This document shows positions 1 to 5,551 of a stretch of 5,551 nucleotides of DNA, piece by piece. How positions within the stretch are numbered: position 1 is the stretch's first letter; the number at the start of each line of letters is the position of its first letter. The DNA is taken from IMG/VR virus record IMGVR_UViG_2690316166_000013, positions 1 through 5,551 of that record, one strand, 5' to 3'. Source of the DNA: a virus (lineage: Duplodnaviria; Heunggongvirae; Uroviricota; Caudoviricetes). The notes under the pieces were generated by a model. The model was not told the origin of the DNA. It did no database searches and was given only the letters and a program-made list of their open reading frames with translations. The position numbers and the translations under genes are program-made.

Positions 1-3000
1 AAACGTCCGAGACGAACGCCAGGTCTTCTGAAACGGCAGCGGGACAGAGTGCCTCAGCTGCGGCAGGCTCAAAAACAGCGGCTGCGTCGTCTGCCAGCGC
101 CGCGTCAACAAGTGCCGGGCAGGCCTCAGCCAGTGCCACCGCCGCCGGAAAATCGGCAGAAAGCGCCGCATCATCCGCTTCAACAGCCACAACGAAGGCT
201 GGCGAAGCCACTGAGCAGGCCACGGCAGCAGCGAGGTCAGCTTCCGCAGCGAAGACATCCGAAACGAACGCGAAAGCGTCGGAAACCAGCGCAGAATCCT
301 CAAAAACGGCTGCCGCATCGTCCGCCAGTTCGGCGGCGTCATCGGCATCATCGGCGTCTGCTTCAAAAGATGAGGCGACCAGACAGGCGTCAGCAGCGAA
401 GGGCAGCGCCACGACGGCATCCACGAAGGCGACAGAGGCTGCTGGTAGTGCGACGGCAGCAGCTCAGAGCAAAAGTACGGCGGAATCCGCGGCAACGCGC
501 GCCGAGACAGCAGCTAAACGGGCAGAGGATATTGCATCCGCCGTGGCGCTTGAGGATGCAAGTACGACGAAAAAGGGGATAGTACAGCTCAGTAGTGCGA
601 CTAACAGCACTTCCGAGTCACTGGCGGCAACACCAAAAGCCGTTAAGGCCGCGTATGACCTGGCTAACGGGAAATACACCGCACAGGATGCAACGACAGC
701 ACAGAAAGGGATAATCCAGCTAAGCAGCGCGACCAACAGCACGTCTGAAACGCTGGCGGCAACGCCAAAGGCAGTAAAAGCAGCCAATGACAATGCTGAG
801 AAACGTCTGCAGAAAGATCAGAACGGTGCGGATATCCCTGGCAAAGACACCTTTACGAAAAATATTGGTGCCTGCCGTGCCTTCGGTGGGTCAGTAAGCA
901 CAACAACAGGAAACTGGACGACTGCACAGTTTATCGAGTGGCTGGATTCTCAGGGAGCATTTAACCATCCATACTGGATGTGCAAGGGTTCCTGGTCTTA
1001 TGGCAATAATAAAATCATTACTGATACTGGCTGCGGTAATATTCATCTCGCCGGAGCTGTCATTGAAGTAATGGGGATAAAGTCAGCGATGACGATCCGC
1101 ATTACCACTCCGACCACATCCAGCGGTGGCGGAACAACCAACGCCCAGTTTACCTATATTAATCACGGAACAGATTATTCACCTGGCTGGCGAAGGGACT
1201 ATAACTCCAGAAATAAGCCAACGGCATCAGAGATCGGGGCGCTACCGTCAGGTGGAACAGCAGTATCATCAGTTAATCTGGCTTCAAAAGGTCGGGTAGC
1301 CGCGCTGACAGACAATACGCAGGGGGCAGCAGGTCTTGAGTTATACGAGGTGTATAACAACGGATATCCAACAGCGTATGGAAATATCATTCACCTGAAA
1401 GGGATGACAGCCGTTGGCGAAGGTGAGTTACTCATCGGCTGGAGTGGTACAAGCGGTGCTCATGCTCCGGCATTTATTCGTTCACGACGGGATACGACCG
1501 ACGCAAACTGGTCGCCGTGGGCGCAGCTTTACACCTCGGCTCATCCTCCTGCAGAGTTTTATCCAGTCGGTGCACCAATCCCGTGGCCATCAGATACCGT
1601 TCCGTCTGGTTATGCCCTGATGCAGGGGCAGACTTTTGACAAATCTGCTTACCCGAAACTTGCAGCCGCTTATCCGTCAGGCGTGATCCCTGATATGCGT
1701 GGCTGGACGATTAAGGGCAAGCCCGCCAGTGGTCGTGCCGTATTGTCTCAGGAACAGGACGGCATTAAATCGCACACCCACAGCGCCAGCGCATCCAGTA
1801 CGGATTTGGGGACGAAAACCACATCGTCGTTTGATTACGGCACTAAATCCACGAATAACACCGGGGCGCATACGCACAGTCTGAGCGGCTCTACAAGTTC
1901 AGCTGGGGCCCACCAACATAGTCAGACTGGGCCCAGAACGAATAGCGGGAGTCAACCTACTGGAATGTTTCCGGCAGGGAGTACTCAAGTTAGCGGGACT
2001 AATCAGGTTGGTATCAGTGGCTCATTAACCAGTGGCACCTCCCAATGGGTAATCGTTAACGATAACTTGTCGTGCAAAAAACTTTTTGCCACAGACGAAA
2101 TTGTAGCGCGTGGTGGTAATCAGATTCGAATGATAGGTGGGGAGTATGGTGCATTATGGCGTAATGATGGCGCTAAAACTTACCTGCTGCTTACCAATCA
2201 AGGTGATGTTTATGGTGGCTGGAATACATTAAGACCGTTTGCTATTGATAACGCAACCGGCGAACTGGTTATTGGAACCAAACTGTCCGCAAGTCTGAAC
2301 GGTAATGCATTAACAGCAACAAAGCTGCAAACGCCAAGACTGGTTTCTGGTGTTGAGTTTGATGGTTCCAGAGATATTACTTTAACCGCTGCGCATGTTG
2401 CTGCTTTTGCCAGAAGAGCAACGGATACGTATGCCGATGCGGATGGGGGCGTTCCCTGGAATGCCGAATCAGGCGCTTACAATGTCACCCGCTCTGGCTA
2501 CAGCTATATTCTGGTTAACTTCTATACCGGAGTCGGAAGTTGCCGGACCTTGCAGATGAAGGCGCATTACAGAAATGGTGGTCTGTTCTACCGTTCTTCA
2601 AGAGACGGTTATGGTTTTGAGGAAGATTGGGCAGAAGTTTATACCTCGAAAAATCTTCCACCAGAAAGCTACCCAGTCGGCGCACCAATCCCGTGGCCAT
2701 CAGATACCGTTCCGTCTGGTTATGCCCTGATGCAGGGGCAGACTTTTGACAAATCTGCATACCCGAAACTTGCAGCGGCTTATCCGTCAGGCGTTATTCC
2801 TGATATGCGTGGCTGGACGATTAAGGGCAAGCCCGCCAGTGGTCGTGCCGTATTGTCTCAGGAACAGGACGGCATTAAATCGCACACCCACAGCGCCAGC
2901 GCATCCAGTACGGATTTGGGTACGAAAACCACATCGTCGTTTGATTACGGTACTAAATCCACGAATAACACTGGTGCGCATACCCATAGTTTAAGTGGCA

Positions 3001-3359
3001 GCACGAATGCAGCTGGTAATCACAGCCATAGAGATGGCCGTCGATTTAACCCCAGTGTTTTTAAAGATACTTATCAATATGGTTATACAAGCTCAGGTCA
3101 AAATACTTGGGGTGTACAAGGCTCAGTAGGTATGTCTACGGGGTGGTTAGCTAATACCAGTACAGATGGTAATCATAGCCACTCACTGTCCGGCACAGCA
3201 GCATCTGCAGGTGCACACGCACATACTGTCGGTATTGGTGCTCATACGCACTCTGTTGCGATTGGTTCACATGGACACACCATCACCGTTAACGCTGCTG
3301 GTAACGCGGAAAACACCGTCAAAAACATCGCATTTAACTATATTGTGAGGCTTGCATGA
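1..3359 (+). CDS. stf: Side tail fibre protein (lambda Stf-like), 5'-partial; the gene starts upstream of the window
   Basis: Frame beginning at nt 3 is open with no stop to TGA 3357-3359 (translated by hand: [20 protein letters not shown]...). The ORF track starts it at 543 only because no ATG/GTG/TTG occurs earlier in frame. Ala/Ser/Thr/Lys-rich N-terminal region, twin GI(V/I)[11 protein letters not shown](S/T)LAATPKAVK motifs, PIPWPSD...[13 protein letters not shown] module, C-terminal His boxes ([30 protein letters not shown]) and terminal [22 protein letters not shown] match lambda Stf as I recall it. At least 1118 codons in window. Confidence 0.9.
573..836 (+). repeat. Tandem pair of phage-tail-fibre repeat motifs (132-nt period), coding, inside stf
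   Basis: [32 protein letters not shown] (from ~573) and [32 protein letters not shown] (from ~705) lie 44 codons apart; nucleotide copies are diverged but clearly related. Confidence 0.6.
1563..1870 (+). repeat. Intragenic direct repeat, copy A (partner at 2673-2980)
   Basis: Hand alignment of 1573-1860 against 2683-2970 shows 7 mismatches in 288 bp, including a 122-bp perfect block (1689-1810 = 2799-2920). Offset is exactly 1110 bp. Both copies encode the identical peptide [112 protein letters not shown]. Confidence 0.85.
2673..2980 (+). repeat. Intragenic direct repeat, copy B (partner at 1563-1870)
   Basis: Same alignment as copy A; identity decays after ~2970 but the protein stays similar ([20 protein letters not shown] vs [20 protein letters not shown]). 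Confidence 0.85.
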
Positions 3360-4246
3360 TTACGCTCATTCTTTCTGCACCAGTAACAGAAATGGCTGAA
3401 GCATTTAAGCGGGTATTTGCAAACGCAGATAATGTGAATATTGTCGGAAAGCCATTTGAAACAATCAGAGAATTTGACTGCATGGTAAGTGCGGCAAATA
3501 GTTTCGGCCTGATGGATGGCGGCGTTGATGCCGCCATTACCGCATTCTTCGGTACTCAGTTACAGTCCCGCGTTCAGAATCATATTCTTCGTGAATATCT
3601 AGGCGAACAGCCTGTAGGTTCTGCATTTGTAATTGAAACGGGGCATAATCATCACCCCTGGCTGGTACATGCGCCAACAATGCGTGTTCCGCTGACAATT
3701 GACGGAACAGACGCTGTATATAATGCAACCTGGGCCGCTCTGCTTGCCATCTTTCAGCACAATAAAAACGCAACGACAGACAGGAAAATAAAGACGGTGG
3801 TATTCCCTGCAATGGGGGCCGGATGTGGTCAGGTTCCGTTTGAAAGCGTTGCCTGGCAAATGAAGCAGGCATGGGATAACTTTAATAAGAAAACAGAATC
3901 AATTTACTGGGAATACGCACACTCCCGCCAGTCGGCAGTATTTGGCACATATGCATACTGTCCGGGTAATTCTGTTTGCCGTTATGCGGATACTAAATAT
4001 ATTGGATGCGGCGATTATCGGACGTATTGCTCACGTTCCGGGCAGTTCTGTATTAGCCATGTGCATCAGGCTGATGACGTGCTGACTAATAATCGCTCTC
4101 GCCCTGATTCGCATACACACCGGTTTAATCCAGAAAATCCCGTAGGCAATCTCACCTCTGGCGCACATAGCCACGGAAGTAGCATCGTTATTGGTGCTCC
4201 CACCCATACGCTCAATAAACAATATTCTGTCTCTGATATTAAGTAG
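3356..4246 (+). CDS. Macro-domain (ADP-ribose binding / ADP-ribosyl hydrolase-like) protein with Cys-rich, His-box tail-fibre-like C-terminal extension; function unknown
   Basis: 296-codon ORF. ATG 3356 overlaps the stf stop (ATGA, 3356-3359) and has GAGG at 3347-3350. Macro-domain motifs seen in the translation: SAAN (N48, nt 3497-3499), [11 protein letters not shown] (aa 51-61) and [14 protein letters not shown] (aa 148-161), comparable to the NAAN / GGGVDGAI / FPAISTG motifs of YmdB/MacroD. C-terminal aa ~181-296 contain C-x5-C-x9-C-x6-C-x6-C followed by DSHTH...[17 protein letters not shown]. Stop TAG 4244-4246. Confidence 0.7.
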
Positions 4247-4254
4247 AGGTGAAC

Positions 4255-4771
4255 ATGGATTTTAGAATGACTGAACAACCACGGACCATAAAAATTTATA
4301 ATTTGCTGGCCGGAACTAATGAATTTATTGGTGAAGGTGACGCATATATTCCGCCTCATACAGGTCTGCCTGCAAACATCGTGGCATCTCGTTGAAGATC
4401 ATCGGGGTAAAACGGTTTATGACGTGGCTTCCGGCGACGCGTTATTTATTTCTGAACTCGGCTCATTACCGGAAAATGTCACCTGGTTATCCCCGGAAGG
4501 GGAGTTTCAGAAGTGGAACGGCACAGCCTGGGTGAAGGATACGGAAGCAGAAAAACTGTTCCGGATCCGGGAGGCGGAAGAAACAAAAAACAGCCTGATG
4601 CAGGTAGCCAGTGAGCATATAGCGCCGCTTCAGGATGCTGTGGATCTGGAGATCGCAACGGAGAAAGAAACCTTGTTGCTGGAAGCCTGGAAAAAGTATC
4701 GGGTGTTGCTGAACCGTGTTGATACATCAACTGCACCGGATATTGAATGGCCAGTAGCACCTATAGGGTAA
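4255..4771 (+). pseudogene. tfa: Tail fibre assembly protein (lambda Tfa-like), disrupted by a frameshift / internal deletion
   Basis: ATG 4255 with GAGG at 4246-4249. Frame 1 reads [41 protein letters not shown], then IVASR and TGA at 4393-4395. The rest of the Tfa-like sequence ([133 protein letters not shown] 4769-4771) continues in the +1 frame from ~4379. Against lambda Tfa as I recall it, ~22 codons ([22 protein letters not shown]) are missing at the junction, a deletion of 3n+2 nt. Confidence 0.75.
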
Positions 4772-4853
4772 ATTCGTAATGATTACCTAAATACGTTATT
4801 CTTTTGTTAAAAAAGTGATTTTGCTATAGGTAGGGAGTATGTTCTTGGATTAA

Positions 4854-4888
4854 GAATAAAAAATCGCCATGAAAGAGCTTCATGGCGA
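4854..4888 (-). terminator. Rho-independent terminator for a minus-strand transcript
   Basis: Perfect 10-bp stem TCGCCATGAA (4864-4873) / TTCATGGCGA (4879-4888) with 5-nt loop. On the minus strand the hairpin is followed by TTTTTTATT (complement of 4854-4862). There is no T-run after it on the + strand. Confidence 0.45.
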
Positions 4889-5036
4889 GTACATAAACGT
4901 ACAAAATGTGATGAAAGTAGAGTGGCGTAAGCCACTATATTAAGATATGACAATAGCGAAGAAAAGTAAATAACATTTTATGGACGTTTAATTGTTAATT
5001 ATAAAAACTAGAGTGCCCGATATTGTTTATCTTGCT

Positions 5037-5138
5037 TTAAAATAATGTACTCAAACCAAATTTTTGAGCTAAAAGCTCAAATAATATAAATGCAATAATA
5101 ATGTTTAATAAGACAATTAGCTTGCTTTGTATTTTCAT
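5037..5138 (-). CDS. Candidate small hydrophobic protein (33 aa), hypothetical
   Basis: Minus-strand ATG (5138-5136) to TAA (5039-5037) encodes MKIQSKLIVLLNIIIAFILFELLAQKFGLSTLF: basic N-terminus then one predicted transmembrane helix. Possible sigma70 promoter upstream on the minus strand (TTGACT, complement of 5196-5201; 17-bp spacer; TATTGT, complement of 5173-5178) and the terminator at 4854-4888 downstream. No clear Shine-Dalgarno; below the ORF-track size cutoff. Confidence 0.2.
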   Translation of the reverse strand: MKIQSKLIVLLNIIIAFILFELLAQKFGLSTLF

Positions 5139-5520
5139 TTCGGAATACTGTTAAGTAACTTTGATGACCCTAACAATAGATCGGAATTTTCTTAGAGTCA
5201 ATGGTCACTGTTTTTGCTTGCAAAGCAAATGTTTTGGTGGTTATAAGTTGTCTTAATATAGTCACGCATGCAACTTGTTCCATGCGGAGATTAAAGATTG
5301 GAATATAACGCGAAGATGGAATTAAATTACATTTGCAATAATCAATTTATTATTACTCAATAATTACCGATATTATTATTGTAAATTAATCATTAGAGTG
5401 CAAAAAGAAATGTAACGGCAAAATAAGAGGACGATAGCTGAGAAAAAAGCGTGCTTTCCCAATCTGGGGCAAATCACGTCTGAATGACACCTGAAAACAG
5501 GTGGTAGCCTCAAGAAGGCT

Positions 5521-5551
5521 GGTGATGCTGCCAACTTACTGATTTAGTGTA
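5521..5551 (+). mobile_element. IS1 insertion sequence, left terminal inverted repeat (element continues past the window end)
   Basis: GGTGATGCTGCCAACTTACTGATTTAGTGTA matches the first 31 nt of IS1 (IRL GGTGATGCTGCCAACTTACTGAT...) as I recall it. Confidence 0.85.

Follow-up and report, generated by a model that had tools for sequence, protein, structure and literature searches.

Results

The macro gene is inserted between the genes for a side tail fibre and its chaperone

The window (here, the whole 5,551-nt stretch of phage DNA that was analysed) covers the distal end of the tail module of a prophage. As shown in Table 1, a side tail fibre gene (stf) is followed by a 296-codon open reading frame, by the tail fibre assembly gene tfa, which begins at 4255, and then by an AT-rich unannotated stretch. 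In the nearest record, that of the N15-like linear-plasmid prophage pAH01-1 from E. coli AH01, identity over the 296-codon frame is 99.9%, and stf, this frame and tfa are listed as tail fibre, 'macro domain-containing protein' and tail fibre assembly protein, respectively. The product of the 296-codon frame (henceforth referred to as the 'macro protein') matches PHROG 2613 (E 5.8e-140), which is listed as of unknown function, and appears in databases under the names 'macro domain-containing protein' or 'phage tail protein'. The segment at 3896-4243, which the first-pass annotation had singled out as a Cys-rich region followed by tail-fibre-type His boxes, corresponds to residues 181-296 of this protein.

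The reading frame of stf is open at the 5' end of the window, indicating that its true start lies upstream. Its product has Pfam matches to Phage_fiber_2, Collar, Gp34_trimer and Phage_fiber, and in pAH01-1 its counterpart bears the name 'prophage tail fiber N-terminal domain-containing protein'. In a phmmer search of the PDB, the final 178 residues of Stf aligned over their full length with 2XGF_A (long tail fiber protein P37; E 6.6e-50), and this tip carries seven HxH boxes, located between 2883 and 3278, the last three of which are spaced 9 residues apart. In the T4 gp37 trimer, seven iron ions are coordinated by such HxH boxes (PMC11705849). The Stf of the window also holds a second, internal copy of the ascending boxes, that is, an orphan half-needle; the idea that the tail of the macro protein completes this half-needle was rejected, because among 72 distinct upstream fibres the internal copy occurs in the Stf of the window only. 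Compared with the intact 191-aa tfa of pAH01-1, the tfa gene of the window is broken by a 65-nt deletion at about 4376/4377, such that the N-terminal frame stops at 4395 and the C-terminal Caudo_TAP part is open in 4319..4771; the translation of 4319-4768 matches PF02413 in Pfam (E 2.3e-44). The macro protein gave no Pfam match to PF02413 (Caudo_TAP).

The start signals of the macro gene are interlocked with the end of stf: the GAGG Shine-Dalgarno motif sits within the last stf codons and the macro ATG overlaps the stf stop codon by 4 nt (ATGA). In a cassette that lacks the macro gene, stf and tfa overlap directly via TAATG and the same GAGG serves tfa. Because the same GAGG is used with or without it, the macro gene is a clean insertion into the coupling point. 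The GC content of the macro gene (0.43-0.49) matches that of the Stf tip and tfa, and a moron-like foreign composition was rejected on the grounds of this similarity to its neighbours.

Table 1. Features of the window, with positions counted from its first nucleotide.
Feature	Position	Strand	Basis
stf, side tail fibre gene	1..3359	+	in-frame stop absent from base 3 to 3356; Pfam matches
Stf receptor-binding tip, homologue of the T4 gp37 needle	2823..3356	+	phmmer against the PDB
GAGG Shine-Dalgarno (3347-3350) and macro ATG (3356-3358)	3347..3358	+	read from the sequence
Macro-domain protein gene, 296 aa and stop	3356..4246	+	PHROG 2613; E. coli annotations
Macro domain proper, residues 1-195, MacroD/Poa1p-like	3356..3940	+	PF01661; Foldseek; invariant residues
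Cys-rich linker, residues 196-240	3941..4075	+	sequence; alignments of relatives
Needle-like His-box tail, residues 241-296	4076..4243	+	sequence; similarity to gp37-type tips
Box 1, DSHTH, residues 251-255	4106-4120	+	true HxH
Box 2, GAHSH, residues 269-273	4160-4174	+	true HxH
Box 3, GAPTHT, residues 280-285	4193-4210	+	degraded, one His
tfa, tail fibre assembly	4255..4771	+	alignment with intact pAH01-1 tfa; PF02413

The gene order is conserved and the macro gene is rare

We examined 83 loci with a full-length macro gene. The order gp37-type tip, ATGA overlap, macro gene and Tfa gene was found in every locus with readable neighbours; the prophages concerned are of lambdoid, N15-like and Mu-like type and come from Escherichia, Salmonella, Erwinia and Izhakiella. 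All readable upstream fibre ends have the same conserved terminus, with a stop codon that overlaps the macro start (ATGA), and a Tfa gene follows the macro gene in all 83 loci except the window and one short locus. The same gene order is seen in Gifsy-1 (Salmonella LT2), beside Mu-type baseplate genes in metagenomic contigs (relative P0126), in the contig of relative P0127 and in Izhakiella, where the fibre gene is a short one of gp37 type. Among 5,426 complete E. coli genomes, the 3' end of the tip was present in 3,903 and the macro gene in 128; about 97% of the genomes with such a tip thus have no macro gene, which indicates that the gene is not needed to build the fibre. The same fibre-Tfa slot is occupied in Mu-like prophages by 203-aa macro-only relatives that have no C-terminal extension. 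These macro-only relatives and the rarity of the gene argue that it is dispensable for fibre building, whereas the conserved His residues described below argue that the tail is not junk. A full-text literature search found no published study, including proteomic or genetic ones, of the macro protein or its tail.

Residues 1-195 form a MacroD/Poa1p-like macro domain

The macro protein belongs to the macro domain superfamily. Residues 44-166 match PF01661 in Pfam at 65.9 bits (cut-off 22), PF01661 is also matched by all 22 of 22 aligned relatives, and AlphaFold monomer models predict a three-layer alpha/beta/alpha macro fold, with pLDDT of 67-93 over most of residues 1-180. When the model was compared with the PDB by Foldseek, 84 matches were obtained at E<=0.001, and the best 50 of the 84 were all macro domains: the top match was 1njr (yeast Poa1p, an ADP-ribose-1''-monophosphatase), followed by TTHA0132, macroH2A, MacroD2 and YmdB. 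Alignments of 22 and 54 relatives showed no variation at N48 and D58, which belong to the motif SAAN...GGVDAAI, and little or none in the glycine-rich loop 152-AMGAGCG-158. We take N48 and D58 to correspond to N25 and D35 of YmdB. The protein thus has the sequence marks of a putative MacroD-type hydrolase, namely the presumed catalytic Asn and Asp and a glycine-rich phosphate loop. It shares with the MacroD/Poa1p-type proteins (E. coli YmdB, human MacroD2, yeast Ymx7/Poa1p 1njr and Thermus TTHA0132) the Pfam Macro match, the predicted fold, the N and D of NAAN...GGGVD and the glycine-rich second loop, but is only 15-27% identical to them, and the 100-residue Cys/His extension and the location in a tail fibre cassette are found in the phage protein only.

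The closest non-phage relatives of the macro part are stand-alone macro proteins of about 195 residues, which show about 50% identity over residues 1-195 and occur in Chloroflexota, cyanobacteria (e.g. Acaryochloris marina), Acidobacteriota and others. They end near residue 200-215 (...RYGGDxG...) without a Cys/His extension. Since the stand-alone proteins stop where the Cys-rich part begins, the phage protein can be described as a cellular-type macro domain with a 100-residue extension. No conserved partner gene was found near about 70 cellular homologues (the best cluster covered 10 loci), and the neighbourhoods of the cellular proteins therefore give no clue to the substrate.

A linker with four conserved Cys residues and one His joins the macro domain to the tail

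The linker contains C202 (codon at 3959), C208 (3977), C218 (4007), C225 (4028) and C232 (4049), and H237 (4064); just two further Cys residues occur among the remaining 265 residues of the protein. The five Cys residues, their spacing (x5, x9, x6, x6) and the ISHVH that follows them (residues 233-237) are exactly as the first-pass annotation described. Conservation held up for most of this cluster: C202, C225 and C232 do not vary among 22 relatives and stay at or above 90% conservation in a set of 54, the conservation of C208 in relatives is likewise at least 90%, and H237, invariant in the 22, drops below 90% in the 54. The fifth Cys, C218, is replaced by F, L, S or Q in relatives, and the conserved unit is therefore four Cys and one His rather than five Cys. 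Similarly, H235 is not conserved, so that ISHVH does not count as an HxH box of the family.

Searches of Pfam, NCBIfam and the PDB sequences with residues 181-296 or 191-296 gave no match. The spacing of the cluster (Cx5C...Cx6Cx4H) differs from that of zinc ribbons and zinc fingers in that CxxC is absent, and no known Zn-binding family was matched. The AlphaFold monomer models predict a weak beta-hairpin at residues 211-225 (pLDDT about 45-57). In the Izhakiella-type and P0126/P0127-type relatives the linker is of a different Cys type (GCDCGCG) and the HxH boxes are still kept. A Cys-rich match in Salmonella phage SEN34 was rejected as an independent module, being a start-less gene remnant.

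The His boxes of the tail are non-random and under purifying selection

The tail of the macro protein in the window has two true HxH boxes and a third, degraded one. The third position reads GAHTHT in many relatives and is also degraded in a large 'GTPTHT' group from E. coli. The family's 76 distinct tails contain 2.04 HxH each on average, compared with 0.64 expected from shuffling each tail (3.2-fold), with between one and four HxH per tail and spacing modes of 9, 11 and 18 residues. Furthermore, G251, H253, H273 and H284 each reach 90% conservation or more among 54 relatives, which come from several genera, and the His residues of the boxes are conserved while the surrounding tail residues vary. 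Overall, the Cys, box and shuffle checks indicate that the features seen by the first-pass annotation are real and non-random, with three corrections.

Tail length ranges from 29 to 64 residues among relatives, and truncation or frameshifting of the tail is common; relatives P0021, P0130, P0131 and P0133 show, between them, truncations, frameshifts and one internal deletion. The conserved C-terminal cap that closes the gp37-type needle is absent from all macro tails, whereas it is present in every upstream fibre with a readable end. In the AlphaFold monomer models (two runs, with 22 and 54 sequences) the pLDDT of residues 233-296 was 23-41, and because the C-terminal 60-100 residues are modelled with low confidence, a fold search of that part is not meaningful. 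The dN/dS ratio rose from 0.11-0.15 in the macro part through 0.24-0.37 in the linker to 0.44-0.46 in the tail; purifying selection acts on the macro domain, the linker and the tail.

At the family level, the tails descend from gp37-type needles

We compared the tails with gp37-type tips both for the window's own copy and for the family. The tail of the window gave E 0.026 against its own Stf and E 0.006 against a set of 49 tips (BLASTP), and its resemblance to the needle is borderline. At the family level, comparison of a profile of 36 tails with one of 36 tips by hhalign gave a probability of 90% and E 1.4e-6, a score that was reached by 2 of 200 column shuffles. Likewise, 67 of 122 distinct extensions matched gp37-type tips at E<=1e-3, and 32 of the 122 at E<=1e-5 (BLASTP); in a control with reversed sequences, which preserves the composition and the palindromic HxH, none of the 122 did so at E<=1e-3 (best E 0.053). 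Nearly all matches fall on the tip's descending boxes and share their 9-residue period. For example, GAHTHTIDIGAHNHAI of the Salmonella relatives (P0044) aligns with the descending segment of Stf (E 3e-5), and an E. coli-type relative (P0004) matches the tip over 46 columns (E 5e-5). Relative P0127 contains FDYGTKITNTTGAHTHTI; its segment FDYGTKITNTTGAHTHTITPEQNAGGSHNH is 63% identical to Stf over 30 residues, including FDYGTK..TGAHTH (E 2e-10), and the motif is that of the ascending strand of the needle. A match of this kind by chance or convergence is unlikely, and we conclude from these alignments that, at the family level, the macro tails descend from fragments of gp37-type needles.

Searches with the window's own copy gave a different picture. 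The expectation that profile searches would relate it to fibre tips was not borne out, as neither phmmer, the PDB nor PF03335 returned fibres. A phmmer search of 1.84 billion representatives with residues 191-296 retrieved the protein's own family and one repeat protein judged spurious, and no other enzyme bearing the extension was found among them. Residues 191-296 had no match in the PDB at E<=10 (phmmer), PF03335 did not match the window protein at E<=10 and matched 3 of 22 relatives weakly (best E 0.76), and a tblastn search of 50,697 phage records with residues 233-296 (E<=10) returned an orthologue in phage Chuche and a weak match in a Serratia phage, with no fibres. The P0127 extension retrieved nothing in a word-indexed search. 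As PF03335 is not matched and the cap is absent, the protein is not filed as a fibre tip, only as a carrier of needle-derived boxes. The assignment of the His boxes to the gp37-needle type therefore stands for the family (hhalign, 67 of 122) and is weaker for the copy in the window, which reaches just E 0.006-0.026 and in which box 3 is degraded. The suggested origin by gene fusion is supported with one amendment: a stand-alone macro domain has gained needle pieces, but these do not include the very 3' terminus of a fibre gene, since the cap is absent.

Discussion

The best explanation of the macro gene is that it is an accessory member of the 'fibre tip and chaperone' cassette of gp37-type tail fibres. 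What is new about it is that an ADP-ribose-type enzyme is joined to fibre-needle fragments within a tip-chaperone cassette; both kinds of component were already known. As to function, our tentative proposal, to which we give a little less than an even chance, is that the His-box tail would trimerise the protein via metal, probably with the help of Tfa, and that the protein might dock on the fibre or assemble beside it. The complete MacroD/Poa1p-like macro domain would putatively bind or hydrolyse ADP-ribose derivatives, and the linker, with its four Cys and one His, joins it to a variable tail of two to four G-x-H-x-H boxes derived from the metal-binding needle of the tip. By analogy with gp37, in which one metal ion is bound by one HxH from each of three chains, three chains of the macro protein might each contribute one HxH per layer to hold one metal ion, giving a metal-bound trimer, which the Cys cluster perhaps also helps to staple, and the downstream Tfa chaperone would probably assist in folding the macro protein. 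Three macro domains would thereby be displayed on a short stalk resembling a fibre, which may attach to the side tail fibre or be produced together with it. The likeness to the T4 gp37 needle (2XGF; PF03335, 'Phage tail fibre repeat') lies in the G-x-H-x-H boxes, the alternating hydrophobic residues that follow them and their 9-14-residue spacing; the differences are that the needle has seven boxes, placed on a fibre shaft, whereas the macro tails have fewer, attached to an enzyme domain, and lack a head domain and a cap. It speaks against the trimer model that the tail has no needle cap and mostly contains boxes of the descending type only, and we know of no precedent for a three-stranded version of the normally six-stranded needle. 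A bolder version of this proposal, in which a Tfa-folded, metal-stapled trimer rides on the side tail fibre of the virion, or else acts inside the cell as a fibre mimic that blunts ADP-ribose immunity, appears improbable to us; the mimic would blunt, for example, Thoeris-type signalling triggered by a fibre-chaperone complex.

Several features of the family could also be accounted for if the macro protein were a cytoplasmic counter-defence enzyme, produced along with fibre and chaperone, that late in infection strips phage DNA or protein of ADP-ribose, or breaks down or sequesters immune signals derived from ADP-ribose. The tail would then be a by-product of frequent recombination in the tip cassette and at most a dispensable tag for oligomerisation or metal binding. 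The accessory distribution of the gene (128 E. coli genomes versus 3,903 with the tip), the macro-only forms in the same slot and the strongest constraint being on the macro part (dN/dS 0.11-0.15) all agree with such a role, side tail fibres and their chaperones have been reported to set sensitivity to Thoeris II, which signals through His-ADPR, and a phage macrodomain, T4 AdfM/Tk.4, neutralises DarTG2 (bioRxiv 10.1101/2025.11.20.689424). A Tk.4 homologue is among the viral fold matches of the macro protein, albeit a weak one (rank 20, E 9e-4). However, AdfM, although likewise a phage-encoded macro domain, belongs to another macro subfamily, is encoded outside the tail module and has no His-box tail, and the macro protein falls into neither the AdfM-type nor the DarG families (NCBIfam antitoxin_DarG, E 0.056 and 12.7 bits against a cut-off of 250; PADLOC DarG, E 0.0077). 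Moreover, coupling to late structural genes would be late for reversing ADP-ribosylation of DNA, a location fixed so strictly between the fibre and chaperone genes of unrelated phage types is atypical of anti-defence genes, and conservation of the box His residues across genera is not predicted of a pure by-product. We regard this explanation as rather unlikely, if still a substantial competitor. That the extension is a decaying, functionless relic of a recombination accident, with the macro domain alone being of importance, seems a poor bet. The strong variation in tail length and sequence, with truncations, frameshifts and an internal deletion, the degraded third box in the window and in the 'GTPTHT' E. 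coli group, the dN/dS of the tail being the highest of the three parts and the predicted disorder of the tail as a monomer would all fit a relic. Yet that dN/dS is still 0.44-0.46, the HxH excess over shuffles is 3.2-fold, the conservation of G251, H253, H273 and H284 among the 54 relatives is 90% or higher, and divergent lineages of the Izhakiella and P0127 types, which have other Cys linkers, retain HxH boxes.

We also considered a helper in fibre maturation, in which the His boxes and Cys residues would bind Fe2+ or Zn2+ and, together with Tfa, pass the metal to the seven HxH sites of Stf, or in which the tail would pair transiently with unfolded needle strands and the macro domain would be a regulatory or nucleotide-binding appendage. 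The place of the gene between stf and tfa, its translational coupling and the mimicry of descending needle strands by the tail suit this idea, and His-rich C-terminal tails are typical of the metallochaperones SlyD, HypB and UreE. But most gp37-type tips of E. coli fold without a macro gene, the macro-only relatives do not have the putative metal-binding part, and the need for a strongly conserved macro domain would go unexplained, so that we hold this to be very improbable. The accessory cassette member that we favour has a parallel of position in the gp38 adhesins of the T2/S16 type, which are encoded right after the fibre gene, before or instead of the chaperone, and are carried on the fibre tip. 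Like the product of the macro gene, these adhesins have hypervariable C-terminal segments; unlike it, they have glycine-rich motifs rather than HxH boxes and no enzyme domain, and a relationship in sequence or fold between the two was not found.

The interest of the family stems from the two processes that it brings together. Macro domains read or erase ADP-ribosylation, which is central to the anti-phage systems DarTG, Thoeris and CmdTAC, and tail fibre tips with their chaperones are the main determinants of host range; the macro gene joins these determinants to ADP-ribose processing. Should the tail target the enzyme to the fibre or to Tfa, this would constitute a new route for recruiting accessory enzymes to virions, and the tail would give engineering work a portable tag for trimerisation or docking. 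If the protein were virion-borne, an ADP-ribose-processing enzyme would be located on the outside of the phage particle, and if either the virion-borne or the intracellular-mimic reading were true, the macro protein would be the first known enzyme that uses a borrowed fibre needle as an assembly or targeting handle. If it were instead an anti-defence factor, it would link tail-fibre sensing to ADP-ribose signalling. Well-studied prophages that carry the macro gene include Gifsy-1, from Salmonella LT2, and some in O157:H7 strains of E. coli.

Divergent, truncated and shortened relatives of the macro protein

In the divergent macro relative of Izhakiella australiensis and in two further distinct relatives (P0126 and P0127), a cysteine cluster of the form G-C-D-C-G-C-G replaces the YCPx4-5C...C...C linker, and all three proteins retain the His (HxH) boxes and the common ...HGVKK end despite this CxCxC cluster. 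A search with the Izhakiella protein as query returned a macro-only relative (P0129) that is about 70% identical to it, lacks any Cys/His extension and is encoded in each of its three loci between a gp37-type fibre gene and the tail fibre assembly gene tfa. The remnant in Salmonella phage SEN34 comprises the Cys-rich segment and the first HxH box (60% identical) and adjoins an acyltransferase gene. This remnant is a recombination scar, and the macro cassette has therefore moved between phage types.

Tails of the Salmonella group (for example L003, L135, L138 and L150) carry a hypervariable segment of 14 residues, flanked by the conserved HQVDDIYIGAH and N(P/T)EYLSGVKNDV, in proteins that are near-identical elsewhere. 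The variants of this segment (AVFLSPNSHGKH, TVSPGTYPHSHY, HVFLGLDYHDNH and GVFPGDHSHTLH) form a pattern that recalls host-range determinants.

Features surrounding the macro gene in the window

Compared with the intact 191-aa tfa of the N15-like prophage pAH01-1, the tfa of the window has a 65-nt deletion; the reading frame of its N-terminal part ends at 4395, and the part matching Caudo_TAP, the Pfam family of Tfa, is read in a different one (4319..4771). As a result, assembly of the side fibre in this prophage may fail. The IS009 match lies wholly within the tfa coding sequence, and probably arises because the Rfam model was itself derived from prophage tfa sequence; a separate RNA gene here is the less likely explanation.

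Through the direct repeat in the side tail fibre gene stf, the fibre carries its collar and ascending HxH boxes twice; the extra copy is internal and precedes a Gp34-trimer-like domain. Of 72 distinct fibres encoded upstream of macro genes, that of the window is the only one with two copies.

The AT-rich stretch holds no long ORF and, among the records listed, no annotated feature. It was matched in 2,504 of 5,426 E. coli genomes, and in 280 of these the match covers 80% or more of the stretch. A hairpin-like inverted sequence, cgccatgaaagagcttcatggcg, lies within it at about 4866-4888.

Coordinates of features in the window and in related loci
Feature	Location	Details
Direct repeat in stf	window 1518-1817 and 2628-2927	300 nt; 92% identity; 1110 nt apart
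Broken tfa	window 4255-4771	deletion at about 4376/4377
Rfam IS009 (RF02111) match	window 4533-4731	+ strand; 218.5 bits
AT-rich stretch after tfa	window 4772-5551	28-36% GC
Divergent macro relative	L008 (Izhakiella australiensis) 2068-2970	likewise P0126, P0127
Macro gene 3' remnant	Salmonella phage SEN34 (L002, KT630649.1) 6000-6210	start-less
Macro-only relatives (P0129)	L165 5001-5612; L166 1329-1940; L167 4345-4956	203 residues; metagenomic Mu-like prophage contigs
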